From IMG/VR virus record IMGVR_UViG_3300042013_000056, positions 32,001 to 96,000 of that record: a DNA stretch of 64,000 bases. One strand, 5' to 3'. Shown here in pieces: positions 2,987 through 22,341 of the stretch. The position numbers and the translations under genes were made by a program. Position 1 is the first letter of the stretch. Each line of letters begins with the position of its first letter. The DNA comes from a virus. Under the pieces are notes generated by a model. That model saw only the letters and a program-made list of their open reading frames with translations, was not told the DNA's origin and did not search any database.

Positions 2987-4579
2987 TTATGCAGCGAGCT
3001 TTGCACCCATGGTATCCATTGAAAAGTTCCCACCACACAGCGGGTCTGTCAATACCAGAGTTCTGACATCATTGTCAACCCGCCACATAACATTACCCGG
3101 ATGGATGTCGTATGTACCGTTAATTTCGCTATGGGTGTCGCGTACAACTTCAAACAGGTTAATTGCATCATCCCCATTACAGCCAAATTCACGTTTGATA
3201 GTAGAAAGTTCACTATTTCGAAACGCTTGCATTTTACCGGCGTTTCGTTCTCTAAACTCGGTTTGTTCAACATCTGTCAGCGGTTCGAGTCGTTCAATCT
3301 TGGCGCAGTATGTTGTGCCCATTCGGGCGATTTTATCAATCTTCGGGAAGTTCTTAGAACTGCCGTTTAACTTGACGTTAACCGCATATGCAAACCAACC
3401 ATCCAGAGAATCGCTGTTACAGTTGACCTTATAAACCCAACCATCAGGCCCAAGGTATGCATTAGACCAGCAACCCTCACCCAGATAGGAAAACCCCTGT
3501 TCTTTTAAACGCTCTGTACAGAGTTGCACCGCCGTATGCATACGCCCATTGCCATAATATCGAACTTCTGAAAAAAACCAAGCAATTCGCTTCGCAACAT
3601 CAACACCCGGTTTATTCAGGTCACGCAAAATATCATTTGCAAGTTGTTCATAAATCTTTTTGAACTTTGCGGTTTTAAGTTTCCGCTTTCTATCGGATTC
3701 TTTCCTATTTGCTACCTGTTCGGCTTCCAGTCTGGCGTCTCGCTCTAACTGTTCAATCCGCTTTGCTTCGCGTTGTTCAGTATTAAGATGCGGGTCCGGT
3801 TTAAACATGTTTTGCCACGCACCAAACAAACCATCATCATCAATACGGAAACCGTCCAGAATGCCATGCAAGCCACCGACATGCACCGGATGTATCGGTT
3901 CAGCCTCACGCCATCCAAGTGTCAGCGGCGGCAAGGCTTCACGTTTGCGCCCATGGATCAAACCCTTTAAAGCCGGGTGACCATAGCCGATACCGGGTTT
4001 AACGCCTTGTGCGTCCTTCCAGAAGGCTTTAAGGGCTGCTACCGGGTTATGTTTGGCAGTTCTCGGTTTGATATGGTGAATCGGCAGCAAATCATCAGCC
4101 AAGATACGAACGTTTTTAAAATCGCCCATCTTGAACGCAAGTTGTGCATGGTCACGATCTTTACGATCTTTAGGAACTTTGAGCTTGAGAAATGGGTTCG
4201 CTACTTCCGGGAATTTATCAACCATATCATCCCGACACACAACGCCTTCAAATTCACGCGGGCGAGCGTCAAAAAATCCAGCCGGGTCAATAACAATATT
4301 TCGCGCAGGGCGGCCAAAACGGCCAAACTGTTGGTTAAGTTGCCATTTGTCCCAGATGTCACGCATGGGGCCAGCAATACCGGGAACACCGAATTTATCA
4401 AATGGATTTTGGACAACTTCCATATCAAACACAATATTTTTGATATCATGTTTTGCAAAATCGCCAGCTTTCGGCCAATCGAACTTGATATTATCATTTG
4501 CATTCATTGCAGCACCTAACAAACGGATTTGTTCTAGGGTAACTTTCGGACCAGTCAACAACTTCATACCATTAAGCAT
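2987..4579 (-). CDS. T7 gp0.7-like Ser/Thr protein kinase with long N-terminal extension
   Basis: C-terminal LGEGCWSNAY, VYKV, DIHPGNVM, LVLTDPL; start moved to ATG 4579 (GAGG upstream, coupled to upstream stop). Confidence 0.78.
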   Translation of the reverse strand: MLNGMKLLTGPKVTLEQIRLLGAAMNANDNIKFDWPKAGDFAKHDIKNIVFDMEVVQNPFDKFGVPGIAGPMRDIWDKWQLNQQFGRFGRPARNIVIDPAGFFDARPREFEGVVCRDDMVDKFPEVANPFLKLKVPKDRKDRDHAQLAFKMGDFKNVRILADDLLPIHHIKPRTAKHNPVAALKAFWKDAQGVKPGIGYGHPALKGLIHGRKREALPPLTLGWREAEPIHPVHVGGLHGILDGFRIDDDGLFGAWQNMFKPDPHLNTEQREAKRIEQLERDARLEAEQVANRKESDRKRKLKTAKFKKIYEQLANDILRDLNKPGVDVAKRIAWFFSEVRYYGNGRMHTAVQLCTERLKEQGFSYLGEGCWSNAYLGPDGWVYKVNCNSDSLDGWFAYAVNVKLNGSSKNFPKIDKIARMGTTYCAKIERLEPLTDVEQTEFRERNAGKMQAFRNSELSTIKREFGCNGDDAINLFEVVRDTHSEINGTYDIHPGNVMWRVDNDVRTLVLTDPLCGGNFSMDTMGAKLAA

Positions 4580-6104: not shown

Positions 6105-6259
6105 GATCGTAACTCCCGGTAAGGTCCGGGGTAAGTCCCGGTTTGCCTTGCTTGTGGTTTATTCTACACCATGGTTTGATACAGTCAAGGGTTTGATACA
6201 AATATTTTTGAAAATAAAAAAGCCCCACCGACCGGCAGGGCTTGAGGTGTTGCGAAACG

Positions 6260-8361: not shown

Positions 8362-8736
8362 TTACATATCTTTTTTGCGCTTCACGTCTTGAGCATATCC
8401 ACCGATGTGCAATGCTTCCCGTACTTGCCAGTTACCCAACGCGTAACCACTTTCAGCGGTCATGTAACCGTTTTGAATCAACCACTCGCCCCCGGTAACC
8501 AAATAATGGTTATCATGACCCGGACGCATATCGGCAAAGCCACCCAATTCTTGCCATTCGCCACCAACCAACGCCGACACATAAATTTTGTGGTAGCAGT
8601 TAGTCATAGAATCATACCACCGAACACCTTTGATCGATATTTCTTGAAAGTTGTCGCATTTCGCGGTCAATGCGGCGGTGACCATTTTAGGGCCGTCTTG
8701 AGTTTGAATGCGGTAGTCGATGGTTTTCATGATCAT
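8362..8736 (-). CDS. Hypothetical early protein
   Basis: Own array promoter and AGGAA. Confidence 0.72.
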   Translation of the reverse strand: MIMKTIDYRIQTQDGPKMVTAALTAKCDNFQEISIKGVRWYDSMTNCYHKIYVSALVGGEWQELGGFADMRPGHDNHYLVTGGEWLIQNGYMTAESGYALGNWQVREALHIGGYAQDVKRKKDM

Positions 8737-8807
8737 GTTCCTGTGGTTGGGTGTGGTTGTATTGTAGCGGGGTTGTCGGTTTGATACAACCCCTATTTCG
8801 ATTCTTT

Positions 8808-9251
8808 TTAGTAGCCCCAGCTTTCACGGGCGTAGCGGTCAAGGTCGCCCATCAATTCAGCTTTGGACTTGTACAGGGGGCCAACAGTGCGCGGCATGCC
8901 TTGCGGGTTCAATACGCTGTCATGAATGTCTACCACACGCCACAGGCCGTGGCCTTGATGCCAGTAGCCTAAACCAGCATAACGGGTTTTCATGATTTTA
9001 AACGTACTGGTGATATTTGCAGATGCTGGCACGGTTTCGGCCTTTTCAATTTCATACGTGAACAGGGTTTGCCCGTGGCTACCGCGAAACTCGGCACCGT
9101 CCTTTACATCAAACCAGCTATTAAAGTCGCTGACTTGCAACACGCCGTCATGAACACGAACATCATAATAACGCCCGTCGATATAGATACCGTTCCCGAT
9201 ATTCAAATGGGCGCGGATTTTGCGAGCTGCTGCGTTAGGTGTGAGTATCAT
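8808..9251 (-). CDS. Hypothetical early protein
   Basis: Own array promoter and AAGGAA. Confidence 0.72.
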   Translation of the reverse strand: MILTPNAAARKIRAHLNIGNGIYIDGRYYDVRVHDGVLQVSDFNSWFDVKDGAEFRGSHGQTLFTYEIEKAETVPASANITSTFKIMKTRYAGLGYWHQGHGLWRVVDIHDSVLNPQGMPRTVGPLYKSKAELMGDLDRYARESWGY

Positions 9252-9331
9252 TTTCTAATTCCTTATGTCGGTTGGTGTAGGGTTATTCTATCAAACCACC
9301 CGAAAGAGTCAAGCGGTTTGATGTAATTATT

Positions 9332-9538
9332 TTACTGTTCTTTGATACTGGTAGTGTTGCCGTTCAACATGGCTATAACAAACACCGTGTTTAGATGTTT
9401 GATGATATACCTACGGTGTGCGCCTTTCTCACTTTCCCAGTCCTGCAAGTCCAACACCACACCATAGCGGCAAAGTTCTTTTTTGACGGCTTCCAGTTCG
9501 TTAGCCTGTATCGCTATCAGGATTTGCAATAGTGTCAT
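9332..9538 (-). CDS. Hypothetical early protein
   Basis: Start moved to ATG 9538 after GGGAG; own promoter. Confidence 0.7.
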   Translation of the reverse strand: MTLLQILIAIQANELEAVKKELCRYGVVLDLQDWESEKGAHRRYIIKHLNTVFVIAMLNGNTTSIKEQ

Positions 9539-9609
9539 GTCGATAACTCCCGGTTGGTGTATGGGAATGATAGAACCCCCTGACAATGATGTCAAGGGGT
9601 TTGATAGAA

Positions 9610-9915
9610 TTATTTTGCGTTCAATTTGTCCAGCCGTTGCTGTTGACGGAACGCCGACAATTCTTTTTTCCAACGCTTGCAAAACCATTTGTTATATGTC
9701 TGCAATGCCTTGAACGCAATTTCAAAGTTTGCCGAATCACGCCGCCATTCCGGGCTTGCCTTGACGCTATCCGGGGTTAACCCCATTGGCCCTACCGGGT
9801 ACTTGTTCAAATCATTAGACGCAGCATCACAGGCCGCGTTTAGTTGATCTTGCTTAGCCTTTGCCTGTTCAAAAGACATAAGCGAATTACCGATTTCTTC
9901 TAGGGACATGAACAT
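9610..9915 (-). CDS. Hypothetical early protein (MGLTPD.VK.SPEW motif)
   Basis: Start moved to ATG 9915 after GGGAG; own promoter. Confidence 0.7.
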   Translation of the reverse strand: MFMSLEEIGNSLMSFEQAKAKQDQLNAACDAASNDLNKYPVGPMGLTPDSVKASPEWRRDSANFEIAFKALQTYNKWFCKRWKKELSAFRQQQRLDKLNAK

Positions 9916-9990
9916 TTTGATAACTCCCGGTTGGTGTGGTTGTATTCTATCAAACCCCACGCCGATTGCAAGGGGTTTGATAAATTCTTT

Positions 9991-10296
9991 TTACTTGACC
10001 AGACCCGCCGCCATGCAAGCCTTTGCCCAGTAGCGTTGGGAACGTGCATCCTTGCCGGGGTGAATCGCTTTAATGGTGTGGCTACCGTCCGTGTGTAGCT
10101 CGCCTTCGGTAGACAGCCAATCCGGTGTGCCGGGGTAGCAATTCGACTGTGTGAAGCCTTCGCGGTCGATATAGTCCACCAGTTCGCGGAAACCATAATC
10201 AACATCTTCAAATTCAAAACCGCGTTCATCAGTTTCGCCCGCTTCTATTGCTTCTTGCGACCATTCCTCATACGTTACGGAAATTTTGATACCCAT
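9991..10296 (-). CDS. Hypothetical acidic early protein
   Basis: Own promoter, AGGGG RBS. Confidence 0.72.
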   Translation of the reverse strand: MGIKISVTYEEWSQEAIEAGETDERGFEFEDVDYGFRELVDYIDREGFTQSNCYPGTPDWLSTEGELHTDGSHTIKAIHPGKDARSQRYWAKACMAAGLVK

Positions 10297-10376
10297 GATA
10301 CAAACCCCTGTTTTCGTTGGTGTGCCGGTATTCTATCAAACCGCCTGATAGTGTCAAGCGGTTTGATAAATTCTTT

Positions 10377-10703
10377 TTAGTCCGTCCGCTTGCCGATTGT
10401 TCGGGCGACGATAGCCACAAATTCCTCATACTCGGCCTTTGCAGCCTCATCACACGCCAGCCATTCACCGAAGTTCGGGGATTGGATCATTACGATATCT
10501 TCGCGGCTGTCAACCCCTTTCGGAATCAAATGCTGTTCATAGCTCGCCACACTGCCGACCGAATGAATCCGAAAGATAAACGCCCGGTAACCGAATATAA
10601 TCGATTGGTCAAGCGTATGCATGGTGAACTTGTATTTAAATTTCTTGCCGCCGTTCTTGACCAGTGCGGCAACAAACGCTTTTGTCATTGGATGTTGTTT
10701 CAT
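10377..10703 (-). CDS. Hypothetical early protein
   Basis: Start moved to ATG 10703; own promoter. Confidence 0.7.
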   Translation of the reverse strand: MKQHPMTKAFVAALVKNGGKKFKYKFTMHTLDQSIIFGYRAFIFRIHSVGSVASYEQHLIPKGVDSREDIVMIQSPNFGEWLACDEAAKAEYEEFVAIVARTIGKRTD

Positions 10704-10791
10704 GTTGTAGCCCCTTTCCGGTTGGTGTGTGGTCATTATGGGGCTATATCAAACCCCTGTCAACAGGTTTGATACAAATATTTTGAGCAAC

Positions 10792-10813
10792 AAAAAAGCC
10801 CCGAAGGGCTTTT
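10792..10813 (-). terminator. Intrinsic terminator (UUCG loop)
   Basis: Minus strand AGCCC-UUCG-GGGCU-UUUUU. Confidence 0.82.
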
Positions 10814-11015
10814 AGTTGATACCTTGCAACTCCCGCCAGATGTCGCCCAACCGCTGTTCAACATCTTGAATCGATATGTAACCCTGTAGCTCGCTTTCCC
10901 CTGTAAATTTAGGGCTTGCCAGATACGCCCGGAACGCTTGCAGGCTGTCATCTGCTAGGTTAATGCGGCTGGTAAGGTTGTCTATCTCGACTTGCTTGGC
11001 GTTGACTGTAGGCAT
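10812..11015 (-). CDS. Hypothetical early protein
   Basis: Own promoter, AGGGG RBS. Confidence 0.68.
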   Translation of the reverse strand: MPTVNAKQVEIDNLTSRINLADDSLQAFRAYLASPKFTGESELQGYISIQDVEQRLGDIWRELQGIN

Positions 11016-11094
11016 TTTCAAACCCCTGTTTTGGTTGGTGTGGGGTCATTATGATGCAACATCGAACGCACGTCAAGCGGTTTGATGCAATTAA

Positions 11095-11310
11095 TTAAGC
11101 AGCCATAGCCGCCGCTTCGGCTGCAAAACGCTTTAGACGGGCTTTGCAGTTACGCCACGACCTACGGTCACTAGGCGTTGAACTGGTAAACACTGGTTTA
11201 GTTCCCGGCATGAAAAATTTTAGGTGTTTGCCGTTTGTTTGTTCTATACCCCAACCCAAACCCTTTGCATAGTCCACTAGGTCGCGCATATCACCATTTT
11301 TAATGTTCAT
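11095..11310 (-). CDS. HicA-like (dsRBD-fold) protein, orphan
   Basis: LVDYAKGLGWGIEQTNGKHLKF...STPSD pattern with the conserved His. Confidence 0.65.
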   Translation of the reverse strand: MNIKNGDMRDLVDYAKGLGWGIEQTNGKHLKFFMPGTKPVFTSSTPSDRRSWRNCKARLKRFAAEAAAMAA

Positions 11311-11373
11311 ATCAAACCCTTATGTTTTATTGATAATAGATTGTTGCATTGAAACAAAATAAAGTCAAGCGGT

Positions 11374-11718
11374 TCAAGCGGTTTTGATTTCGTGTATCAG
11401 TTCCAGAACTTGCGGGCATTCTGACAGTTCATCACCTAACCGCAAGTGTTTAAAGTCCTTTGATGCAACCCGGTACAGGTGTCGGAATAATCCGCTGTTG
11501 ATGTAGTCCGGGTGTGAGTATGCAGCAACCACCCGACCCAATTTGCTGCTATGGCTAGCCACAAGCAACACAGCGACCGAACGCCCGTGAACCTGATAGA
11601 CATATCGGTTTGAGCCGTTGAACGTCTTAAACAGCGTTACAGACGGCCCAACCAAATAGCCGGTTTCCTTATCGGTGATGGTTGGGCATTGGTTACAGGG
11701 TGCAAGTAGACTATCCAT
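11374..11718 (-). CDS. Hypothetical protein, weak GNAT-like C-terminal pattern
   Basis: VVAAYSHPDYINSGLFRHLY. Confidence 0.4.
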   Translation of the reverse strand: MDSLLAPCNQCPTITDKETGYLVGPSVTLFKTFNGSNRYVYQVHGRSVAVLLVASHSSKLGRVVAAYSHPDYINSGLFRHLYRVASKDFKHLRLGDELSECPQVLELIHEIKTA

Positions 11719-11734
11719 AACCAACCCCTATCGA

Positions 11735-12148
11735 TTAGACCGATTTGATAATTTCTGCGTTCTTTTCATACCATGCCAACATTTTTTGCAGGGCTTCGGC
11801 TGGTGTCTTGCCTTTGATCTTGCGGAATTTCAAACCAGCGTTACGCAAGTGATGCGACCATGATAACAATTCAATGTCAAATGAATTTGCGACGTTGTGT
11901 TGACTGTTACCATTCAAGTGCATCATGAAACGCATTTGACCGGTTGCATTCAACAGGATACCGCTTGCGCATTCGGATTTGTCCGCGACGTTGTAAAAAT
12001 CAATTACCACATTGTCACCCAAACTTTTGTAAGGGCGGGCTTTTGCCAGAAAGGTCGGGAACAGTTGTTTTATGCCAGTGTTAAAGGCTTCGCAACCTTC
12101 GGCGGCGTTGGCTACTGCATCTTGAATCAATTGGATTTGAGTTTTCAT
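11735..12148 (-). CDS. Hypothetical early protein
   Basis: Own palindromic promoter. Confidence 0.72.
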   Translation of the reverse strand: MKTQIQLIQDAVANAAEGCEAFNTGIKQLFPTFLAKARPYKSLGDNVVIDFYNVADKSECASGILLNATGQMRFMMHLNGNSQHNVANSFDIELLSWSHHLRNAGLKFRKIKGKTPAEALQKMLAWYEKNAEIIKSV

Positions 12149-12225
12149 GTTCCGGCTTCCTGTGGTTGGTATGGGTTAGTGTAGCGGGGTTGTAGGTTTG
12201 ATACAACCCCCTTTAGCAATTTATT

Positions 12226-12546
12226 TTAGTACCGGGTTACTTTGTCCGGGTTGTCTTTAATCCATTGTTGCAACCGGGCCTGACCTTCGGCTTCTGATTC
12301 TTTAATCAGTTCCGACACCTTATGCGGGAACCAATACGCTTCGCAATCCATATAGATAAACCGGTCATACTTCGACAAATCGTTGGTTGTGTCAAACCCG
12401 ATAATTTCACGACCGGGGAAAATAACCCCGTAATCGTTGATGAATGTAACGATGTCACCGACCTTTAGGTCACACCCTACCGGGGCTTCTTGATCCAGTT
12501 TGGCGGCGAATGCTTCGATGTCGCCGTGGCCTGTACGATTTTTCAT
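12226..12546 (-). CDS. Hypothetical early protein (SH3/KOW-like start)
   Basis: LKVGDIVTFINDYG; own promoter. Confidence 0.7.
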   Translation of the reverse strand: MKNRTGHGDIEAFAAKLDQEAPVGCDLKVGDIVTFINDYGVIFPGREIIGFDTTNDLSKYDRFIYMDCEAYWFPHKVSELIKESEAEGQARLQQWIKDNPDKVTRY

Positions 12547-12616
12547 GATTTCGGTTCCTGTGGTTGATGTTGGGTAGTGTAGCGGGGTTGTAGGTTTGAT
12601 ACAACCCCTATTTTGA

Positions 12617-12991
12617 TTATTCGGTGAAATAATCCCGGCTCAAACTGTGCGACCCGAATTCAACGTGTGGAACCTTCAAATCAATGTCATAATCGAACAA
12701 CCCGACACCGTGGCCCATTGCTTGCATGGCTGCATAATGGCCCCATTCTTGCGCCTTGAGTTCGTTGGTAGCGTTGTTGCTTTCGTACAAGCTTGCAACC
12801 GGCATGCCGTGCATCAGTTCGAGCTGAAAAGTCAGGGTATCAGCCGCATGCAACGCCGCCGAATCGATCACAGCGGGCAATTGATCCATGATTTCGCCGT
12901 GCAATGATTGGCCGCAATCGTCTGCCATGTCAGCATAAGCCGAACCGAAAAACGCTAGTGCCATGCCTTTCTTGATTTGTTCTTGAGACAT
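12617..12991 (-). CDS. Hypothetical acidic early protein
   Basis: Start moved to ATG 12991 after AGGAG; own promoter. Confidence 0.72.
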   Translation of the reverse strand: MSQEQIKKGMALAFFGSAYADMADDCGQSLHGEIMDQLPAVIDSAALHAADTLTFQLELMHGMPVASLYESNNATNELKAQEWGHYAAMQAMGHGVGLFDYDIDLKVPHVEFGSHSLSRDYFTE

Positions 12992-13107
12992 TTTTGTAAC
13001 TCCTGATTTGGTTGGTGTGTAGAGATTATGGGCTTGATTGATATGGCTGTCAACAGGTTTGATACAAATATTTTTAGATATGAAAAAGCCCCGGTTAAGG
13101 GGCTTCT

Positions 13108-13305
13108 TTACTTGACAAGCTCTAAATCCGCTTGGTTCCAATACTTGCAGCCGCGCAAATCTTGATCTAACCAAACTTCGCCGTCTTTACCGTAACAGGC
13201 CCGGATATTCGCCTGATGGTTGTCTTCCCGACCATCCGGGCAACCGTCCCAACTTGCCAACACATCCGGCTTTAGTTGTACGGTGTCGCCTTTCTTGAGT
13301 GACAT
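13108..13305 (-). CDS. Small hypothetical protein (SH3-like)
   Basis: LKKGDTVQL. Confidence 0.65.
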   Translation of the reverse strand: MSLKKGDTVQLKPDVLASWDGCPDGREDNHQANIRACYGKDGEVWLDQDLRGCKYWNQADLELVK

Positions 13306-13315
13306 GATTAACCCC

Positions 13316-13567
13316 TTAAACGTCGTTGGTAACCCAATTATCTTTCATGTGGAAAGATTCGCCGTTATCGAAACGCACGCTCAATTCATAACCCGGTTTG
13401 AACGTGTGAGTTACTTCGCCTTTCATGCCAACCGAAAGCTTTTTCAGGAAGCTATCACTTGGATAGTTAGGGGTCACACACGACCGGTTTGAGCTGTGCA
13501 TTGTATCGATGTTGGTTTGGGTTAGAACTACACGATCACCAACTTCGCGATGTACTGGCATGACCAT
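13316..13567 (-). CDS. Small hypothetical protein (SH3-like)
   Basis: EVGDRVVL...GMKGEVT; own promoter. Confidence 0.65.
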   Translation of the reverse strand: MVMPVHREVGDRVVLTQTNIDTMHSSNRSCVTPNYPSDSFLKKLSVGMKGEVTHTFKPGYELSVRFDNGESFHMKDNWVTNDV

Positions 13568-13659
13568 TTTTGTATCTCCGGTTTAGAAGGCGTTTTGCCT
13601 TTCGATGTGGTTATTCTAACAGGTTGATTGAATGCGTCAAGCGGTTTGATAGAAATATT

Positions 13660-13959
13660 TCAAAATTTTTGAATCGGGCTTACCAGTTCGTCAACTAACC
13701 GGCGATCATTGGGTAACAGGTCGCCGGGGATAGCCCATTGGCCGTTGATGCGTTCCAGCTTGATAACCCGACCGGATGGCAGTCGAAACGTCGTCAAGGC
13801 GTCTGTAGGCTGTTCAGGACGGCATTTCGCACCGTCGTACAGTTCATCTGCCAGATACTGCGCACGTTTGACACATTGGGATTCTGTAAGGTGTAGGGCT
13901 TGTACTCTTTCCATCATACCGAAAGGCGTATCGGTCAAGGCAAACAGTGTATACAACAT
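13660..13959 (-). CDS. Hypothetical protein
   Basis: Coupled (TAATG) to the upstream ORF. Confidence 0.68.
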   Translation of the reverse strand: MLYTLFALTDTPFGMMERVQALHLTESQCVKRAQYLADELYDGAKCRPEQPTDALTTFRLPSGRVIKLERINGQWAIPGDLLPNDRRLVDELVSPIQKF

Positions 13960-14204
13960 TACAAACCCCCCAAATCAGCATTGATACCGAAAATATCAAC
14001 GTCTTTAACATCAGTAAAATCAAGGGCCATGCATTTAGCCATGTAATCATCAGGCCCGCGGCGACCAATATTAAAAACATTACCCATATAATAAGCGATA
14101 ATTTCGTCCTCAGTTCCATTGATTTCGGTGTTAGTGGTAAATTCTTTACCATCTTCACCTTTCCACGTTAATTTTATGGTACGGCGGCGGGCTACTTGTG
14201 ACAT
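13959..14204 (-). CDS. Hypothetical early protein
   Basis: Own promoter, AAGGAA. Confidence 0.7.
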   Translation of the reverse strand: MSQVARRRTIKLTWKGEDGKEFTTNTEINGTEDEIIAYYMGNVFNIGRRGPDDYMAKCMALDFTDVKDVDIFGINADLGGL

Positions 14205-14324
14205 GTTGGCGGTTCCTTGTGTTGTTTGGCTTTCTTGTGGTTATTCTAGCAGGTGGTTTGATATAGTCAAGGGTTTGATACAAATATTTTTAGGCGACAA
14301 AAAGCCCCATAACGGGGCTTCTTA

Positions 14325-14522
14325 TCAGTACATTGCTTGCTGGGTCAATTCGTTGACCACGGTTTTTGCAGTGTGTTCACTCAGACCGGCACGTTGGCAC
14401 ACATCATTGGCGTCTAGAACCATCCAGCGCCCCGACATGACGTTAAATTCAGCCCGGTAGGCCATGGGCTGGCTTGTGGTTGGTGTGGCTTGTACGGCGT
14501 TTAGCGGGATTACGTGGAACAT
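14325..14522 (-). CDS. Hypothetical protein
   Basis: GGGG RBS before ATG 14522; terminator downstream. Confidence 0.6.
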   Translation of the reverse strand: MFHVIPLNAVQATPTTSQPMAYRAEFNVMSGRWMVLDANDVCQRAGLSEHTAKTVVNELTQQAMY

Positions 14523-14588
14523 TGCATTACCCCCAATTAACACAAAAAGCGGCCTATGCTAGCATATCACAGGCCGTTGTCAAATCCT

Positions 14589-14894
14589 TTACAGATGGCA
14601 GTCCAACCCGGTCGCGGCTGTAAATTCAGATTGCAACATGTCGGCATAGTTGCCTTCTGACTTGTGAACCAATTTCAGGTTAACGCCGTGAAAGTTGTAA
14701 AATTCAATGTCGTACAGGTCAGCCGGTGTCAAGATAATTTTCACCAAATTGATTTTATCTTTCGCAAAATTGGACGGTAGTTTGAACTGTAGGAAATTTT
14801 CACCACCTACAAACTGTTTCGCGCCAGTCATTGCGATAAACTTGTTACCGCCGATTTGTTCTAGGATGGTATTTGCTACGGTCAGATTCGACAT
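14589..14894 (-). CDS. Hypothetical phage protein (ILEQIGG..F.AMTGAK motif)
   Basis: Own promoter; motif recurrent in phage hypotheticals as recalled. Confidence 0.72.
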   Translation of the reverse strand: MSNLTVANTILEQIGGNKFIAMTGAKQFVGGENFLQFKLPSNFAKDKINLVKIILTPADLYDIEFYNFHGVNLKLVHKSEGNYADMLQSEFTAATGLDCHL

Positions 14895-14968
14895 TTTGAA
14901 AACCCTTGTTTCGGTTGGTGTGGTTGCAGTTTAACACCTTTGTATCAAACTGCAACCCCTTTTCGAAA

Positions 14969-15430
14969 TTAAATATTCAGTTCCAACCCTTTGCGAATCA
15001 ATTCAATGGTAAGGGTTACCGCTTTTTCTTGTGCTTCTTTAAAACCCTTCGCGGTAAACTTTTGTTCTTTTACATCCTCACCATATTGACCACCTTTAAC
15101 GCACAATGTCCATGATTCACTTGACTTATAACGGGAAATTGCCAAATGGTTGTTATATGGGCTGGTGTCCTCATGCAAACCATTGATCAGGTAAACGATT
15201 TGTTTGGACTCACAAAACAAATCTTTCATCCAGTCAGCGGCTATCAAAAATTCGCATGCTTGTACAGCATCAAAAATTTTATACGAATAATCTGCATCAT
15301 CTGTAGATGTTGCATTTTCCACTGCATCATCTATTTCATCATCAAGTTTGGACAGGATAGCCAACGCCAACTGATTATCATCAGTTAGTGCCTTGTGTTC
15401 CAGTTGGGACAAACTTAGTTGATTAATCAT
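14969..15430 (-). CDS. Hypothetical acidic early protein
   Basis: Own palindromic promoter, AAGGAA. Confidence 0.72.
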   Translation of the reverse strand: MINQLSLSQLEHKALTDDNQLALAILSKLDDEIDDAVENATSTDDADYSYKIFDAVQACEFLIAADWMKDLFCESKQIVYLINGLHEDTSPYNNHLAISRYKSSESWTLCVKGGQYGEDVKEQKFTAKGFKEAQEKAVTLTIELIRKGLELNI

Positions 15431-15502
15431 GATTCAAATTCCTTTCAGTGGGTGTATGAGCATTGTATAGGGGTTGTATCAAACCTACAACCCCTATCGA
15501 AA

Positions 15503-15754
15503 TTAAATTTTACCGAACAGCCACAGGCTTTCCGGGGCTTGCGACGGTGTGAAGCGATACAGCCTCACATAACCATCAGCCATAACCACTATAAACACCA
15601 CGCTAGCCACGCGGGAATCTTCCAGAACGCGACGGGCTGCCATTCGGGCTTCGGCATACGTGGTTGTATATTCACCGTTGCCGACCTTTGCCAAATGGTC
15701 TAGTTCGAACAGTTCACGCAGTGGGGAAAGCTTGCTAGGAAGTTGGAAAGCCAT
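15503..15754 (-). CDS. Hypothetical early protein
   Basis: Start moved to ATG 15754; own promoter. Confidence 0.7.
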   Translation of the reverse strand: MAFQLPSKLSPLRELFELDHLAKVGNGEYTTTYAEARMAARRVLEDSRVASVVFIVVMADGYVRLYRFTPSQAPESLWLFGKI

Positions 15755-15831
15755 TTTAAAATTCCTTGTTTCGGTTGGTGTATGAGCATTGTATAGGGGT
15801 TGTATCAAACATACAACCCCTATTTTTAAAA

Positions 15832-16035
15832 TTATGCATTCAACCGGTCGGCATAGCCGCTTGCATAATAATATGCGCCTAGGTTGCTTGGTTGAACACC
15901 AATCGGATTATCCAAATTGAACTTAGCCACACACGCAGCATGGCTCATACCGTTTAGGTCGGCCTGTGCAGCTTCCCAACCTTTCATGTAGTCCGGTTGA
16001 TGTTGGGTGTGGGTAACTGTGCGGGGTGTGTTCAT
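15832..16035 (-). CDS. Hypothetical early protein
   Basis: Own promoter, AAGGAA. Confidence 0.7.
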   Translation of the reverse strand: MNTPRTVTHTQHQPDYMKGWEAAQADLNGMSHAACVAKFNLDNPIGVQPSNLGAYYYASGYADRLNA

Positions 16036-16112
16036 TTCAAAATTCCTTGTTTCGGTTGGTGTATGAGCATTGTATAGGGGTTGTATGTTTGATACAACCC
16101 CCCAATCGAAAA

Positions 16113-16349
16113 TTATTTTACTTTCAATTTCCCGGTCAATCCCATGGATTTTAGGTGGTTGATAATCTGTTCCACTACATTAGATTTCGTTTCACCGTAG
16201 AAAACAACCGGCTCACCAATTAGTTCAGCAACGTTTGTTTTAATTACGATCAAATCGCATTCACCTTCAAACCACACACGACCGGTCTGGATGTCGTTTT
16301 GTTCGAAAACATAAGCAGTAGCAGCCACAGCTAGTTTGGGGAAATTCAT
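16113..16349 (-). CDS. Hypothetical early protein
   Basis: Own promoter, GAGGA. Confidence 0.7.
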   Translation of the reverse strand: MNFPKLAVAATAYVFEQNDIQTGRVWFEGECDLIVIKTNVAELIGEPVVFYGETKSNVVEQIINHLKSMGLTGKLKVK

Positions 16350-16423
16350 TTTTGTATCCTCTTTCTGGTTGGTGTGACTGCATTATAAAGGGGTTGTAGG
16401 TTTGATACAACCCCTATTTTGAT

Positions 16424-16732
16424 TTAAATTTTGTCGAAAATTGCGCAGTTCGAGTAATTACCCAATACACGGGTTTTGTACTGTTCACCGTCAATCAACA
16501 CAATTTCACCATGTTGCAATGGGGTTTCAGAGTTCAGGCGGTCACGTTCGGCAACGTCGGCGGCTGTGTATTTGTCTTTCAGAACAGAACCGGTAGACAA
16601 GGCCCAATAGATGCCATCGCCAACTTTGTCATAGTCTTGTTTAAGGTGCGCAGTCATTACTCGACGGCCTGCATTCACGTTAAAGCTGTTGACTTGATCG
16701 AAAGAATCTGTAGCTAGGATCAGGGTTTTCAT
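16424..16732 (-). CDS. Hypothetical early protein
   Basis: Own promoter, AAGGAA. Confidence 0.72.
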   Translation of the reverse strand: MKTLILATDSFDQVNSFNVNAGRRVMTAHLKQDYDKVGDGIYWALSTGSVLKDKYTAADVAERDRLNSETPLQHGEIVLIDGEQYKTRVLGNYSNCAIFDKI

Positions 16733-16744
16733 TTTTCTATTCCT

Positions 16745-16811
16745 TGTTTCGGTTGGTGTGTAGAGATTATGGGACTATATCAAACCCCTGTCAACAGGTT
16801 TGATACAAATA
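16745..16811. repeat. 67-bp promoter/leader unit duplicated exactly at 22828..22894
   Basis: Identical TGTTTCGGTTGGTGTGTAGAGATTATGGGACTATATCAAACCCCTGTCAACAGGTTTGATACAAATA. Confidence 0.9.
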
Positions 16812-17015
16812 AATGAAAATAATTTCAGCCAGACATGGCATGGTGTATGCAGTGACAAAAATCATGCCAAGTCAAATCGCAGGCTCCTTCGGTGATTTCC
16901 TCCGAGCCGCCCCGGTAACACCAGTATAATTCTATCAAACCAACAATGCAACCTTTGATACAAATATTTTTAGGCAATAAAAAACCCCAGCGGTCCGGGG
17001 CTTTGTGTGGGGGTA

Positions 17016-17198
17016 TCACACCCCCAAACGATACCGATAGACGTAATAAAGAATTTGACCAGCAAACACAATACAGCATACCAACACAGCCGCAACAAAC
17101 CAGACATTAGCCGTCGTCTGGTTACGGCTGTAACGGTTGATAGCGAACCACAGACAGATTAGCAGTAGAACGCCAACCGTAACACCCAGAGTAATCAT
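17016..17198 (-). CDS. Small two-TM membrane protein
   Basis: Two hydrophobic stretches. Confidence 0.68.
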   Translation of the reverse strand: MITLGVTVGVLLLICLWFAINRYSRNQTTANVWFVAAVLVCCIVFAGQILYYVYRYRLGV

Positions 17199-17257
17199 AT
17201 GGCACCTGTTGATTAGTTAATAACCTATAGAACCATACAATCAATGGTGTGTCAAGG

Positions 17258-17464
17258 TTAAAGTTTATGCAGCTCTGTGCATTCGTATACGTGAACTGTG
17301 CAGCCGTTCGGCAACTGGTAATAGTTCATATTCCAGCGGATTGCATCAAACTCCTTTCCGTCATGTTCCAACAGATACGAGCGTTCATCATTTGAATAAT
17401 GACCATAGCGAAAGCCCGCTGTGGTCACCGTGTTGGATTTCAATTTGATTCGTACACGTTCCAC
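17258..17464 (-). CDS. Hypothetical protein
   Basis: Co-oriented ORF, GAGGG upstream. Confidence 0.62.
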   Translation of the reverse strand: MERVRIKLKSNTVTTAGFRYGHYSNDERSYLLEHDGKEFDAIRWNMNYYQLPNGCTVHVYECTELHKL

Positions 17465-17665
17465 AATACACCCTCAAACAAAACTGTAAATGATTGCGAC
17501 AACACCACACACCAGAATAGCCAGAAACATCCATGTAATAACCGCCGCACCGTCGCGGTCCAATTCTTTTTCCACTTGAAATTCGTTCAATTCGTTCATG
17601 TTGTCACCTTCTTGGTATGATTTGATATAGGGTCATTCTACAGGCTTTTGGGCATAATGCAAGGG

Positions 17666-17887
17666 TTAGATTTGGTCCGGGGTCATATGGCATTCATTCA
17701 AATGTTTAGCCATTTCACCGTGTGTATGACCATGGCGGGCCAGCATCCCATCCGCCAACGATACCAAATGAAGATTAGATACCCCGGTGTTTGCCGGGTC
17801 ATACCCGATAATGTATTGTTCAGAGCCATTTTCAGACCATACACGCCGACCGGGTTTGATATCTGTAGCTTCCCATTCAAATTTCAT
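17666..17887 (-). CDS. Hypothetical protein
   Basis: Start moved to ATG 17887 (MKFEW). Confidence 0.62.
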   Translation of the reverse strand: MKFEWEATDIKPGRRVWSENGSEQYIIGYDPANTGVSNLHLVSLADGMLARHGHTHGEMAKHLNECHMTPDQI

Positions 17888-18116
17888 TTTGAGCCTCGAC
17901 AGGTTTGATAGAGTTGATTGGTTTGATTGGGTTGCCCCAGTCGTCGTGCGTTTCACTGCCCCGATATGGGCTAGCCTTGATTGTGATAACCCGGCGAATT
18001 ACAACACCAGTACCACAACACAGGGCCACTACTGTTAAATGCCGGTCGGATTGTTCCACGTTCCATTCGGCGGCGGTATTCAACCGCAACTCACCTTTAC
18101 AGTTTGGACATTCCAT
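17877..18116 (-). CDS. Small Zn-finger protein
   Basis: CPNC ... CC. Confidence 0.6.
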   Translation of the reverse strand: MECPNCKGELRLNTAAEWNVEQSDRHLTVVALCCGTGVVIRRVITIKASPYRGSETHDDWGNPIKPINSIKPVEAQNEI

Positions 18117-18508
18117 TATTCATTACCCCAGACAGAACGCAAGCAACTAGCCAGCGACGGGAACTTATCACCGTCAAACTTTCCCTTTGTACCCTTGGGA
18201 CGGTAAAAGAATTGATTGTCAATCTGTTTCAGAACGTGGCCGATGGTCTTACCATCCAGCGTAATTGGCTCAACTACCACAAGCTTTGCATATGCCTTGA
18301 TATCAGCTTTCAGCTTACCCATGGTTGGGGCTTTCTTGCGGTCCCCATTGAACGCTACAGCCTGATATTCACGACGGGCGCGCAGGTATTGCACCTTGAA
18401 CACAACACCGCCACAAACGACTTCCACGACGTTCAGGCCGGTGCTAATGATACCCACAGTCAGTTCTGATAGTTCGAGTGGAGTATCCTGCTTTTCGTAA
18501 ATGATCAT
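18116..18508 (-). CDS. Hypothetical basic protein
   Basis: Coupled starts and stops on both sides. Confidence 0.7.
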   Translation of the reverse strand: MIIYEKQDTPLELSELTVGIISTGLNVVEVVCGGVVFKVQYLRARREYQAVAFNGDRKKAPTMGKLKADIKAYAKLVVVEPITLDGKTIGHVLKQIDNQFFYRPKGTKGKFDGDKFPSLASCLRSVWGNE

Positions 18509-18684
18509 TACACAGCCCCTGTATAGGTTGTTAGTTCAGATTCGCGGAATGTACCAGCATCACGGCCAGAATTTCCAAAGGTGCAAGAATAGAATCCAAA
18601 GTCATTAACGCTTTTGATGGTCATCCAAAAAACGCCACCCTTGGCTTGAACCGGGTCACCTTTGGAAAATTTGTTCGCTATCAT
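18508..18684 (-). CDS. DUF2158/YodC-like small SH3-barrel protein (58 aa)
   Basis: Hand-translated FSKGDPVQAKGGVFWMTI...C.F...GTFRESEL; own promoter. Confidence 0.55.
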   Translation of the reverse strand: MIANKFSKGDPVQAKGGVFWMTIKSVNDFGFYSCTFGNSGRDAGTFRESELTTYTGAV

Positions 18685-18759
18685 GATTCAGTTCCTTGTT
18701 TCGGTTGGTGTATGGTCATTCTAGCACGCACACACCAACCGTCAAGGGGTTTGATAGAA

Positions 18760-18939
18760 TTATTTTAGGTGGCGCTCCCAAATGTGAATAATGATACAGC
18801 CGTCCCGCATCTGCATCTTGTACCCGGCCCATTTATCCGACATGAAATTACCGGAAAAATCGTACACAACACCAACCCATTTAGACAGTCTCGCTAAATT
18901 CTTTTGTGCCTTACCAGCCGGGAGCGTGATGGTTCGCAT
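18760..18939 (-). CDS. Small hypothetical protein (59 aa)
   Basis: Hand-translated MRTITLPAGK...; AGGTGA upstream. Confidence 0.55.
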   Translation of the reverse strand: MRTITLPAGKAQKNLARLSKWVGVVYDFSGNFMSDKWAGYKMQMRDGCIIIHIWERHLK

Positions 18940-18950
18940 GGTGTCACCTG

Positions 18951-19214
18951 TTAGGCTTGAACGCCAAAGTCATAGAACAGTTGATAATCGTTCTTTTCAA
19001 CCGCTGCAATTGCTTCAAGAATATACGACTGCATTTGCGTATGATCTTCTTCGCATGTCACCGCTTTAGCCCGAACGCGTGCTACAGCCTTTTCGTCTTT
19101 GGTGTCAGCGGTTGCCAGTTGAAACGACATCATATGATGTTTAACACCTTGACTGTTGATATACGAGATATCTACAAACGCCTTGATAAAGCCGGGGGTA
19201 TGGATCATTGGCAT
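18951..19214 (-). CDS. Hypothetical protein
   Basis: AAGGAG upstream. Confidence 0.68.
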   Translation of the reverse strand: MPMIHTPGFIKAFVDISYINSQGVKHHMMSFQLATADTKDEKAVARVRAKAVTCEEDHTQMQSYILEAIAAVEKNDYQLFYDFGVQA

Positions 19215-19226
19215 AGCGGTAACTCC

Positions 19227-19469
19227 TTATAGATAGTCATTGATGTAGCGGGCAAGCTCAGCCAATATAACGGTTTTTTCAGTGTTGTAGCACTGCATAA
19301 AGTCATTGGCAGAAAAAACGTATACAGCATGATTCAGTGGGTCTGATGGGATTTTGTACACATCCAACCGGATTTTCCGCCCACTTGGCGCAATCATTAC
19401 AGATTCTATAACCTTTTCAGCTTCGCGACCTTCAAGGCATGCGATCTTTTTGATTTCACCGATAGCCAT
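19227..19469 (-). CDS. Hypothetical protein
   Basis: Duplicated leader with AAGGAA. Confidence 0.7.
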   Translation of the reverse strand: MAIGEIKKIACLEGREAEKVIESVMIAPSGRKIRLDVYKIPSDPLNHAVYVFSANDFMQCYNTEKTVILAELARYINDYL

Positions 19470-19527
19470 GATGTTAATTCCTTTTCGGTTGGTTTCTACT
19501 GACTCAGCCCCATTTAAGGGGCTTTGT
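19466..19527. repeat. Duplicated hairpin+leader+RBS unit (second copy 20557..20624)
   Basis: Near-identical about 62 bp, including AGCCCC-ATTTAA-GGGGCT. Confidence 0.85.
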
Positions 19528-19535
19528 CGTTTGGG

Positions 19536-19811
19536 TTATTCCGGGTTGCGGAATCCGTCCGAGTTTTCAGCTTCCAGTTCGGCAAGCGTTTTCAGCTTCG
19601 GTGCCGGGGCGTTGAAATCAATTTTCGTACCACCACAGCGATAATGGGTTACGGTCACTTCAAACCCGCCAGCATCGGGGAACCGTTCTTTAATGATGTT
19701 GAACAGGGCTTGTGCCTCATGTTCGCTAACCGCCGAGCGTGCATCTGTAGCGAACAAGTGACGGCCTTTATAGCTAACGTTGATTTCGTAATGCGATTGG
19801 ATGCCAGCCAT
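19536..19811 (-). CDS. Hypothetical early protein
   Basis: Own promoter, AAGGAA. Confidence 0.72.
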   Translation of the reverse strand: MAGIQSHYEINVSYKGRHLFATDARSAVSEHEAQALFNIIKERFPDAGGFEVTVTHYRCGGTKIDFNAPAPKLKTLAELEAENSDGFRNPE

Positions 19812-19888
19812 GATATCGATTCCTTATTTCAGTTGGTGTAGGGATATTGTAGCGGGGTTGTATGTTTGATACAACCCCTTTGATGAAA

Positions 19889-20143
19889 TTAATTTGGGAA
19901 CATGTAATAGCATGTATCTATGTAATATTCAATCCCATTCGTATCATCATGCACAAGGAAAACTTTGTTGGTGACTAGGCCGTGTTTGATTGCTTCTTGC
20001 TGGCATTCAGTCACCAGCGAATCAACGTAGTGTGTTGCAACCGAATCAGAGCATTCATTGACGGCGCGAATTAGGGTTATTGCATCTTGACGGCAAAGCG
20101 AGTTAACAGCGAATTTGCGGTCGGGGCTGGTCCAGTTCGACAT
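19889..20143 (-). CDS. Hypothetical early protein
   Basis: Own promoter, AAGGAA. Confidence 0.7.
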   Translation of the reverse strand: MSNWTSPDRKFAVNSLCRQDAITLIRAVNECSDSVATHYVDSLVTECQQEAIKHGLVTNKVFLVHDDTNGIEYYIDTCYYMFPN

Positions 20144-20227
20144 TTTGAAATTCCTTGTTTGCGTGTTTCGGTTGGTGTGATTGAATGATAAAACCCCCTG
20201 ACAACCATGTCAAGGGGTTTGATAAAA

Positions 20228-20560
20228 TTATTCGTATCTGTCGTGGATTTTTGCCGCACCGTGCCACGATTCACAACCTGTCATTTTCCGCATCGCATCA
20301 GAGAACCGCGAATCACTGGTTGCCCCGAAGTTCCCGCCGAACATGTGCCAATTCTTGGACGTTGCCGGGTCTTCACACACGATATAGACCACGCCTTTAA
20401 CGGTTGGGTGATTGACCAGCCATGCCGCTGGGGCGTCCTCAGAAGGCTCTAGCGGGCCTTCAACGTTAACCAGCGTTAGACGGCTATACCGTGAAGATAC
20501 ACCGCCGTTAGTGCAATCGTAACCATCAGCGGAACGGTATACAGAGATTAGCAAGCCCAT
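20228..20560 (-). CDS. Conserved phage hypothetical (DCTNGG...MFGGNF..TSDSRF...HDR.E)
   Basis: Recognisable widespread motif set; duplicated leader. Confidence 0.75.
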   Translation of the reverse strand: MGLLISVYRSADGYDCTNGGVSSRYSRLTLVNVEGPLEPSEDAPAAWLVNHPTVKGVVYIVCEDPATSKNWHMFGGNFGATSDSRFSDAMRKMTGCESWHGAAKIHDRYE

Positions 20561-20624
20561 GATGTTAATTCCTTTTCGGTTGGTTGGTGTTTCTACTGAC
20601 TCAGCCCCATTTAAGGGGCTTTGT

Positions 20625-20894
20625 TTAATTCTTACTCAATTTATGCGTGCCTATCTGCACCTTGCCATCTTCAAGGATTTTTACGTCCTTGAGATAATCC
20701 CCGTCGATCTTGACCCATTCATTACCAGCACCGAAACTCATTTGCTTTTCAAGCCGTACCGATATGGGTTGAAATTTAATGCGGTAGACGGTCCCACTAG
20801 GCGCAACCACTTGCATATGCCCCCAGCGATCCGTAGCCCAGCCCAAACCCTCTAAGGCTAATTGCACCACTTCCAAATGAGATTTCTTTTTCAT
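20625..20894 (-). CDS. Hypothetical early protein
   Basis: Own promoter. Confidence 0.7.
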   Translation of the reverse strand: MKKKSHLEVVQLALEGLGWATDRWGHMQVVAPSGTVYRIKFQPISVRLEKQMSFGAGNEWVKIDGDYLKDVKILEDGKVQIGTHKLSKN

Positions 20895-20968
20895 GGTTGT
20901 CTACCTGTTTCGGTTGGTGTATGAGCATTGTATAGGGGTTGTATCAAACCTACAACCCCTATTTCGAT

Positions 20969-21292
20969 TTATTTTTGCTTGCGGTGTGCGTGTGCGACCT
21001 CATTAAAGAACCGCTTAGGGACTTTCTTATATTCTCGCCCATCAGCATCACAGAACCATTCCGGCAGTGTGCCGTTTTCACCGTCGCTCATGTATGCCCA
21101 TGCTCGGCGGTCGTCGTCATCGCGTACCAGAACGATATCCCACCGGCTGCCCTCGGTTGGTTCAGTCTTGGACATTGCCAACGCTTCTTTATACGTCCGT
21201 GAGTGCCAATGCTCTATAACATCATCTTTCGCGAATTCCGGTTGATCGATATCCGATACTTCTTCACAGTCCCACTCATATGCAACAGCCAT
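20969..21292 (-). CDS. Hypothetical acidic protein
   Basis: Co-oriented, AGGGG upstream. Confidence 0.7.
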   Translation of the reverse strand: MAVAYEWDCEEVSDIDQPEFAKDDVIEHWHSRTYKEALAMSKTEPTEGSRWDIVLVRDDDDRRAWAYMSDGENGTLPEWFCDADGREYKKVPKRFFNEVAHAHRKQK

Positions 21293-21295
21293 GAT

Positions 21296-21679
21296 TTAAA
21301 CCCCTTTGATTGCTTGGATTTTGCCATCGGCAAAGTAAACCACGATATTGGACAACAGTTCGCCAATATCATCTTTTGTATTTGGTTCACGTACATAAAA
21401 ATCAATGATAGCCCGCCCATCGTCTGAGAGTTCCACACCTTTAGTGAATTCAGACCATTCAACCGGTGACCACAAATCGGTATCAGACCAGTCGTCAAGG
21501 TCTGCCAACCGAGTGACGCGGGCAATGTTGATATTGTTTTCCACACCTTGAACTTTGATGTTGACACGCTCGCCAACTTCGACTGTTACACGTTTTAGGC
21601 CAACTTCTTTGCGAGCCGCTTCACGTATTTGCTGGCATTCTTTGGTGCTAGGCTTCCAAACATTACCGATGATCGACAT
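21296..21679 (-). CDS. Hypothetical early protein
   Basis: Own promoter, AAGGAA. Confidence 0.72.
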   Translation of the reverse strand: MSIIGNVWKPSTKECQQIREAARKEVGLKRVTVEVGERVNIKVQGVENNINIARVTRLADLDDWSDTDLWSPVEWSEFTKGVELSDDGRAIIDFYVREPNTKDDIGELLSNIVVYFADGKIQAIKGV

Positions 21680-21757
21680 TTCAAAATTCCTTGTTTCGGT
21701 TGGTGTGATAGCAGTATAGCAAAGGGGTTGGTTTGATACAACCCCTATTTGATTAAA

Positions 21758-21976
21758 TTATTCAGCCAGAAACTTAGCATATGCGGCTTCACGTTTCGCC
21801 GTGCATATGTCGCGGGAATCGGTCAATTGAACTTTTTCAGCACAACCAGCGGAATAGCCAGCCTGAAACGCTTTAAAGCCATTCGGTTGGGCTTCTGGAT
21901 TGAATGGGTTTTCTTTATAGAACCCAAGCGAGCCAGCCCTATAAGCGTATTCAAAGATTTCCTTTTTGCTAGCCAT
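21758..21976 (-). CDS. Hypothetical early protein (AY..G...G...NPF...G..AG pattern)
   Basis: Own promoter. Confidence 0.68.
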   Translation of the reverse strand: MASKKEIFEYAYRAGSLGFYKENPFNPEAQPNGFKAFQAGYSAGCAEKVQLTDSRDICTAKREAAYAKFLAE

Positions 21977-22050
21977 TTCGTGAACCCCTGATTTGGTTGG
22001 TGTAGGGATATTGTAGCGGGGTTGTAGGTTTGATACAACCCCTATTTGAT

Positions 22051-22269
22051 TTAAATTTTGTGTGGTGCGAACGTGATACCTTGGGCCTGACCTTCAAATC
22101 CCCGGCAAACCGCTTGGGCCTTGATTGCAGCAGCTTCAGCCAGTTCCAAAGTATCGAACTGCATAGCCAGCTTGACAGAGCCCATGCAAGCGGTTCCCCA
22201 AGTCGGGCACCATGCGTGCAAGTAATCAGAACCAAACTTGCCATACGTGCGTTTTATTACATAAGCCAT
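22051..22269 (-). CDS. Hypothetical early protein
   Basis: Start moved to ATG 22269; own promoter. Confidence 0.68.
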   Translation of the reverse strand: MAYVIKRTYGKFGSDYLHAWCPTWGTACMGSVKLAMQFDTLELAEAAAIKAQAVCRGFEGQAQGITFAPHKI

Positions 22270-22341
22270 GATCAAATCCTTTTCCGTTGGTGTATGAGCA
22301 TTGTATAGGGGTTGTAGGTTTGATACAACCCCTATTTTCAA

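Follow-up and report, generated by a model that had tools for sequence, protein, structure and literature searches.

The window analysed here is a 64,000-nt stretch of DNA (bases 32001-96000 of the virus record IMGVR_UViG_3300042013_000056, labelled G000) in which a hairpin-forming element, GGGGTTGTA-N7-TACAACCCC, recurs in front of small genes with its 7-nt core in either orientation. The genome bears the marks of a T4-type phage, including a gp23 match (E 7.7e-117) and homologs of AsiA and endonuclease VII, and its host is probably a Pseudomonas. The genes around the copies are small, tightly packed open reading frames (ORFs), about 50 in number and all on the minus strand, and minus-strand start codons lie 33-45 nt downstream of each copy. 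The window contains 11 matches to the pattern, whereas 100 dinucleotide-preserving shuffles of the same DNA put the chance expectation at 0.00, and a search of the whole 182,859-bp genome found it nowhere else. These are exactly the 11 copies located by a first-pass annotation, which had also recorded a single arm mismatch in the 8769 copy and a further copy shortened by 3 nt. Both features were seen again, the latter as a degenerate twelfth copy at 21724-21745, where three bases (TAC) of one arm are gone.

On the plus strand the core reads GGTTTGA at 8769, 12186, 12584, 16390, 22018 and 22308 and TGTTTGA at 16077 and 19854. Three other positions have the exact reverse complement, TCAAACC at 15470 and 20935 and TCAAACA at 15796, giving the split of eight against three that had been annotated. 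We call a copy sense when the word TTGTATCAAAC, which arm and loop spell together, lies on the gene (minus) strand, and flipped or antisense when the word lies on the opposite strand. By this definition G000 has 9 sense and 3 antisense copies of what we term class-A hairpins, listed here by window position:

8769-8793, minus strand: class-A promoter hairpin, sense; one arm mismatch; -10 TACAAT; upstream of ORF 8362-8736
12186-12210, minus strand: class-A promoter hairpin, sense, gene-strand loop TCAAACC; -10 TACACT; upstream of ORF 11735-12148
12584-12608, minus strand: class-A promoter hairpin, sense; orthologous promoters G004 85845 and G001 ~64680 also sense
15470-15494, minus strand: class-A promoter hairpin, flipped, gene-strand loop GGTTTGA; antisense word; -35 TTGTAG; upstream of ORF 14969-15430
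15796-15820, minus strand: class-A promoter hairpin, flipped, gene-strand loop TGTTTGA; -35 remains TTGTAT; orthologs G001 57486 antisense, G004 92738 sense
16077-16101, minus strand: class-A promoter hairpin, sense, loop TCAAACA; ortholog G004 93922 antisense, a flip between orthologs
16390-16414, minus strand: class-A promoter hairpin, sense; -10 TATAAT
19854-19878, minus strand: class-A promoter hairpin, sense, loop TCAAACA; -10 TACAAT
20935-20959, minus strand: class-A promoter hairpin, flipped, gene-strand loop GGTTTGA; -35 TTGTAG; upstream of ORF 20625-20894
21724-21745, minus strand: degenerate class-A copy, sense word; right arm without TAC; -10 TATACT shifted, spacer still 17 bp
22018-22042, minus strand: class-A promoter hairpin, sense; -10 TACAAT
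22308-22332, minus strand: class-A promoter hairpin, sense; ortholog G004 97580 also sense

All genes here keep to the minus strand, so the inversion is local, as the annotation had concluded. It had further described the 15796 and 16077 copies as having identical 48-nt flanks. The 48 identical nucleotides exist, but they comprise 38 nt of flank and 10 nt of arm and lie on the -10/leader side only; pairwise comparison of the two copies found no identity on the other flank. One promoter subfamily with an identical -10 and leader contains three flipped and two unflipped copies, with both loop variants represented in both orientations. A degenerate class-A-like promoter also lies on the minus strand at 14935-14960 of the window (GGGGTTGCAG-TTTGATACAA-AGGTGT-TAAACT), with the word antisense and a right arm without CCCC, which suggests that the palindrome is not strictly required.

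Promoter architecture and the genome-wide word

Read along the gene strand, the stop codon of the previous gene is followed by an A/T-rich, UP-like tract, then GGGG-TTGTA, the loop and TACAA-CCCC. Two or three bases further on comes a -10 box (TACAAT, TACACT, TATAAT or TATACT), followed by a leader that begins with ACACCAACC, an AGGA Shine-Dalgarno sequence and ATG. A -35-like hexamer, TTGTAN, is formed by the last bases of the left arm together with the first base of the loop, and the remaining loop and the right arm make up the spacer. We scored 55 class-A elements from six genomes (G000, the related records G001, G004 and G005, and the phages Milchi and Astolliot), taking as the -10 a TAnnnT hexamer with at least 4/6 matches. 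In 54 of the 55 elements a TAnnnT lies 16-17 bp from the TTG hexamer, or 15 bp in one Milchi copy; the exception is a G001 copy in which no TAnnnT match was found. Although loop length varies (5, 6 or 7 nt), the spacer stays constant, the -10 tracking loop length. This constancy argues that the elements carry the signature of sigma70-type promoters with the -35 in the left arm, much as the annotation had read them. The degenerate 21724 copy likewise preserves 17 bp between TTGTAT and TATACT. The annotated change of the -35 from TTGTAT to TTGTAG on flipping is found in two of the three flipped copies, but not at 15796, which keeps TTGTAT.

The stem of 9-12 bp has a predicted RNA fold of about -19 kcal/mol (z-score -4 to -6), and the stem-loop overlaps the -35 and fills the spacer. 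Three other roles for it were rejected. As an intrinsic terminator of the upstream gene it is ruled out by the gene strand, which is without a U tract; a consensus scan made terminator-like calls at these sites for the antisense strand alone, a direction in which the A/T tract looks like a T tail. A -10 formed by the left arm and loop (TATCAA) would have no -35 upstream of it, and flipped copies would lose TATCAA. N4 hairpin promoters have a short stem and a 3-nt loop, and a single-stranded hairpin promoter of that type does not account for a -10 that stays 16-17 bp from the TTG hexamer in a sigma70-like manner.

The 7-nt core is not free sequence. The arm and the adjacent loop spell TTGTATCAAAC(C), so that the core supplies one half of a word found throughout the genome, a point the first-pass annotation had missed, and it is as part of this word that the core is conserved. 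In the window there are 60 occurrences of the form TTSTATCAA where 1.83 would be expected, an enrichment of about 30-fold that holds on both strands, and the genome has 101 on its two strands, with A-C-C as the preferred extension. The word is found in most other early-promoter classes examined in the region. In the canonical TTGAC promoters of G000, the sense word lies 13-14 nt upstream in 15 cases and the antisense word lies there in none, while in 9 canonical promoters the antisense core falls within the spacer or on the -10, often as a second copy. Word usage in G001, G004 and G005 is mostly TTGCATCAA, and the form in G001-type phages is TTGCATCAAA. The effect of a flip is to take the word off the gene strand over the -35 and place it on the opposite strand in the spacer, about 16 bp downstream, a placement of the antisense word that the canonical TTGACA promoters of the phage also use. 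Both positions of the word are thus employed in other promoters of this phage.

The word is probably the docking site of a DNA-binding protein. An AsiA (anti-sigma70) homolog is encoded outside the window at G000:C1:102868-103089, and no MotA activation or DNA-binding domain was found by Pfam; a partner for sigma appropriation, if one exists, could read the word. The presence of AsiA would suit a word that is an analogue of the MotA box, but MotA domains were not found in the Pfam search, and the antisense copies speak against an orientation-specific activator. An integration host factor (IHF) site (WATCAANNNNTTR) was rejected because it fits only some class-B promoters and no phage HU/IHF gene was found by Pfam, host IHF being outside this rejection. 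A nick or modification motif was also rejected: the paper describing Milchi gives none for that phage, and the nick motif it does report belongs to another phage (PMC11780129).

At least three further early-promoter classes occupy the minus strand between window positions 6160 and 24520. The first has TTGTATCAAACC 13-14 nt upstream of a canonical TTGACA, often after a true GC-hairpin/T-tract terminator (examples at 6193, 7714, 10769, 13059, 14275, 16800 and 22883). The second consists of TTCTATCAAACCCC-TTGAC followed by the word-like GGGGGTTCTATCAT as the -10 (9601, 18751, 23717 and 24059), and in the third an inverted repeat of ATCAAACCCC and GGGGTTTGATAGAAT brackets the -35 (8319, 9286, 9945 and 10331).

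Loop orientation among relatives

Five relatives show the same flips: the IMG/VR genomes G001 (183 kb) and G004 (168 kb), the 76-kb IMG/VR fragment G005, and the Pseudomonas phages Milchi and Astolliot. Paralogs that differ by a flip occur within G000, G001, G004 and Milchi, and the orientation tally of G001 is 10 antisense to 2 sense. The arms in G001 and G004 are asymmetric, with a majority gene-strand form of GGGGTTGTA-TTTGA-TGCAACCCC. The TTGCA arm adjoins the TCAAA side of the loop in either orientation, and the other arm of the majority copies is TTGTA. In three minority copies (G001 65030 and G004 97580 and 85845) the entire 23-mer is exactly reverse-complemented, which means that the inverted segment takes in the asymmetric arm position and that the breakpoints fall in the outer GGGGTTG/CAACCCC. 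This is the breakpoint pattern predicted by inversion through an inverted repeat.

These details bear on the possibility that no inversion took place and that two promoter sub-families independently built TTGTATCAAAC on either strand, by point mutation or cassette exchange. The word is under genome-wide selection and orthologous genes do exchange promoter cassettes, both of which would favor independent origins. The copies are, however, exact reverse complements over 5-9 nt that include a linked variable base (TCAAACA/TGTTTGA) in otherwise identical flanks; the asymmetric arm base has turned over along with the loop in G001 and G004, and Milchi and Astolliot differ by an exact 6-nt inversion in 94% identical DNA. 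We consider independent construction of the two forms highly improbable. Sequencing or assembly artefacts at hairpins are a still more implausible source. G000, G001, G004 and G005 are metagenome-assembled records, but the same flips appear in Milchi and Astolliot, which are cultured phages with completely sequenced genomes, assembly k-mers are far longer than the 9-bp arms, and orthologs in independent assemblies share orientation.

Promoters were paired as orthologs by the similarity of their downstream genes, yielding 19 pairs. Orthologous promoters in relatives had been pointed to in the annotation as a check on its recurrent local inversion through the palindrome. That inversion is borne out by exact flips at three pairs, together with the paralogs in four genomes, whereas the other 16 pairs have the same orientation. 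The discordant pairs are G000 16077 (sense) with G004 93922 (antisense), G001 57486 (antisense, as G000 15796) with G004 92738 (sense), and Milchi 163110 (AATTGA) with Astolliot 162547 (TCAATT), the last an exact 6-nt inversion between flanks that are 94% identical. Flanks of the concordant pairs are 73-98% identical, or related at the protein level only. With random orientation, the binomial probability of three or fewer discordant pairs among 19 would be about 0.002, for pairs that are not fully independent. A conservative count requires at least five independent flip events.

Genome-wide similarity between Milchi and Astolliot is reported to be 86% (PMC11780129). One of their seven orthologous loops is inverted and four others carry ordinary substitutions, with flanks diverged by 2-12%. 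From this we infer that flips become fixed at a locus about as often as a few single-site substitutions do, a frequency lower by orders of magnitude than that of phase variation. The concordance of 16 of the 19 pairs and the strong majority orientation within genomes point the same way, to a per-locus flip frequency of the order of ordinary substitution. We therefore read orientation as mostly inherited, and the flips as rare inverted-repeat spacer inversions tolerated by selection.

This evidence also tells against the central proposal of the first-pass annotation, a recombinase-free micro-switch in which frequent, reversible flipping toggles the -35 or the orientation of an operator word and so tunes individual early genes. 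Flips do recur over the clade, three flipped and two unflipped copies coexist in one recently expanded subfamily, and each flip both reverses a probable protein-binding word and shifts it by about 16 bp, with TTGTAT becoming TTGTAG in two copies. A frequently used switch is nevertheless difficult to reconcile with 16 concordant pairs of 19 despite flanks that have diverged by 2-27% or more, with the strong majority orientation of each genome (9:3 sense in G000, 10:2 antisense in G001), or with a single flip among seven Milchi-Astolliot loci, which is near the single-site substitution frequency. The -35 position that changes is in addition a weak determinant, and it is unchanged at 15796. The comparison with relatives thus lends no support to a working micro-switch, and we judge it improbable; a switch of low frequency is possible.

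Hairpins with other loops behave differently. Milchi (L195, 150000-174859) and Astolliot (L196, 150000-173571) contain about 17 hairpin promoters with TTNNGG or ATCTGG loops, all in one orientation, whose loop bases change fast while the arms stay fixed (right arm TACAACCCC or TACAGCCCC). Among these roughly 17 copies of non-word loops (TTNNGG type) in the two phages, the flipped form was never found, which suggests that a flip persists only at promoters that function in either orientation.

Outside this group of phages, the exact N7 pattern gave only three unrelated single matches in IMG/VR. Nearly all of the listed matches of a variable-gap metagenome scan were unrelated terminator-like hairpins, with one Astolliot-like fragment and no near-identical strains among them. 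Two loci reached via a 185-aa protein (L140 and L141) are from unrelated phages in which the element is absent. An apparently unrelated phage (L167, IMGVR_UViG_3300036781_000147) has CTACA-GGGGTTGCA-CCAACAG-TGCAACCCC-TGTAG at 3278, 3728 and 4195; these copies are tandemly spaced before small genes and in a single orientation, with a similar stem in a different context. Another record (L033, Ga0307489_10058735) has two GGGTTGTA...TACAACCC hairpins 90 bp apart, at 1498 and 1590, with the reverse-complement loops TCCCCAGA and TCTGGGGA. Their flanks are inverted too, so the pair represents an inverted repeat of larger size rather than a flipped loop.

Relation to PeSL cassettes

Promoter-early stem-loops (PeSLs) were described in the T4-type phages RB49 and phi1 by Arbiol, Comeau, Kutateladze, Adamia, and Krisch in 2010 (PMC2839356). 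As described there, a PeSL combines an A/T tract and a strong promoter of sigma70-like type with a GGGG...CCCC stem-loop that lies between the promoter boxes or overlaps them. PeSLs stand ahead of ORFans in hyperplastic regions and bring about the shuffling of cassettes (PMC2839356).

The elements in the window fit the stem-loops of PeSL-type early-promoter cassettes, and the cassettes probably belong to this described family, the second point that the first-pass annotation had missed. They occur in a T4-type genome before small ORFans of a hyperplastic region, with sigma70-like boxes (the -35 matching in TTG only), an A/T region upstream, and a Shine-Dalgarno sequence and ATG downstream; a stable GGGG...CCCC stem-loop overlaps the promoter boxes. 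The order of parts is that of the RB49 and phi1 PeSLs, from the A/T tract after the stop codon through sigma70-like boxes and the GGGG...CCCC hairpin to the Shine-Dalgarno sequence and ATG. The setting is also alike, with dozens of copies before small ORFans in an early hyperplastic region and turnover of cassettes and genes between relatives.

Such turnover is apparent between G000 and G001, whose arrays have strongly different gene contents and share few promoter-proximal genes. Some orthologous early genes have promoters of different classes in the two genomes, a hairpin in one and TTGAC in the other (12148-12211 and 18684-18760; L139, L142 and L143). Compared at the level of genes and promoter classes, this exchange is consistent with PeSL-style shuffling.

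Several features set the elements apart from the PeSLs of RB49 and phi1. The stem sequence itself, GGGGTTGTA/TACAACCCC, is conserved here over six diverged genomes, the loop and arm spell a word enriched throughout the genome, and the loop occurs in both orientations; neither loop flips nor such a word are described in the searched passages of the PeSL paper (PMC2839356). Promoter and terminator activity were measured for the RB49 and phi1 PeSLs, whereas the elements here are read as promoters from their sequence.

Origin of the flips and what they mean

Taken as a whole, the observations are probably best explained by PeSL-type cassettes that bear the word and undergo rare, heritable loop inversions, without acting as a switch. 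Both arms end in TTGTA, and an inversion of the spacer through the inverted repeat would therefore leave a complete word, merely relocated. Polymerase switching templates between the arms at replication is the most likely source of such inversions, going by the known mechanism. The resulting flips would be rare heritable mutations at single promoters, not a regulated or high-frequency switch, and would have become fixed at least five times in the phage clade because both arrangements work.

Exact inversion of a spacer or loop at short inverted repeats, sometimes with arm mismatches carried along, is a known product of inter-strand template switching at replication (PMC8604942, PMC8794818). The features of that product are present here: the spacer is an exact reverse complement, the breakpoints lie in the arms and the flanks are unchanged. 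Replacement of the spacer by its exact reverse complement, untouched flanks, homoplastic recurrence among relatives and the inclusion of asymmetric arm positions are shared with those inverted-repeat inversions (PMC8604942, PMC8794818), with quasipalindrome mutagenesis in E. coli (PMC7202029) and with the small hairpin inversions of plastid genomes (PMC6824564), which are events of one class with them. Unlike in those systems, the spacer here lies in a promoter and contains half of a probable protein-binding word, so that a cis-element is relocated, rather than a neutral or RNA loop being scrambled.

The fimS (FimB/FimE) and hin switches similarly present promoter DNA between inverted repeats in two orientations. 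In contrast to these, the segment here is 5-9 bp long between arms of 7-9 bp, orientation is stably inherited, and the -10 and gene orientation are constant. No recombinase was seen next to the elements, although no search was aimed at recombinases, and the proposed route would require none.

The same fixed inversions could arise without template switching if a cruciform or hairpin were extruded, cut by a structure-specific nuclease and restored by recombination-dependent repair. The stem is stable (about -19 kcal/mol), an endonuclease VII homolog is present, and T4-type phages recombine on very short homologies, PeSL crossovers having been mapped within the stem-loop's loop (PMC2839356). A 9-bp arm with a 5-7 nt loop, on the other hand, extrudes poorly in relaxed DNA. 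Cruciform resolution across the junction produces hairpin-capped breaks, not an in-place inversion. The sequence offers nothing that separates this route from template switching, and we regard it as an unlikely origin of the flips, preferring template switching.

A number of points weigh against our overall account of word-bearing, PeSL-type promoters with rare loop inversions. The -35 hexamer is weak, with TTG as its sole match. No U tract follows the hairpin on the gene strand, so the terminator role of PeSLs is not evident. A Pfam search returned no MotA, MotCF or HU/IHF homolog as a candidate binder of the word. Template switching is deduced from its product, a sequence that could also result from cruciform processing or repair. 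Finally, a higher rate of flipping could be hidden by purifying selection.

A regulatory role for the flip is a separate matter. By moving the word of a clade-specific protein from the -35 into the spacer, a flip might toggle the shut-off or activation of a gene, with both states held as standing variation, though we think this rather doubtful. If it were true, populations would hold both states at some loci without a recombinase, and the timing or strength of early expression would be altered gene by gene.

The elements described here bring together three subjects that had been separate: the PeSL cassettes known from T4-type phages, spacer inversion at inverted repeats, and a word, spread through the genome, that is a probable protein docking site. 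They also counsel caution: reverse-complement loops in repeated phage hairpins should be taken as mutational footprints, and not as switches, unless there is read-level evidence. The promoters at 15796 and 16077, with 48 identical nucleotides and opposite word orientation, amount to a natural experiment, and orthologous pairs in the cultured phages Milchi and Astolliot differ likewise. Such pairs could reveal whether the action of the word depends on its orientation and, with that, what kind of factor reads it.

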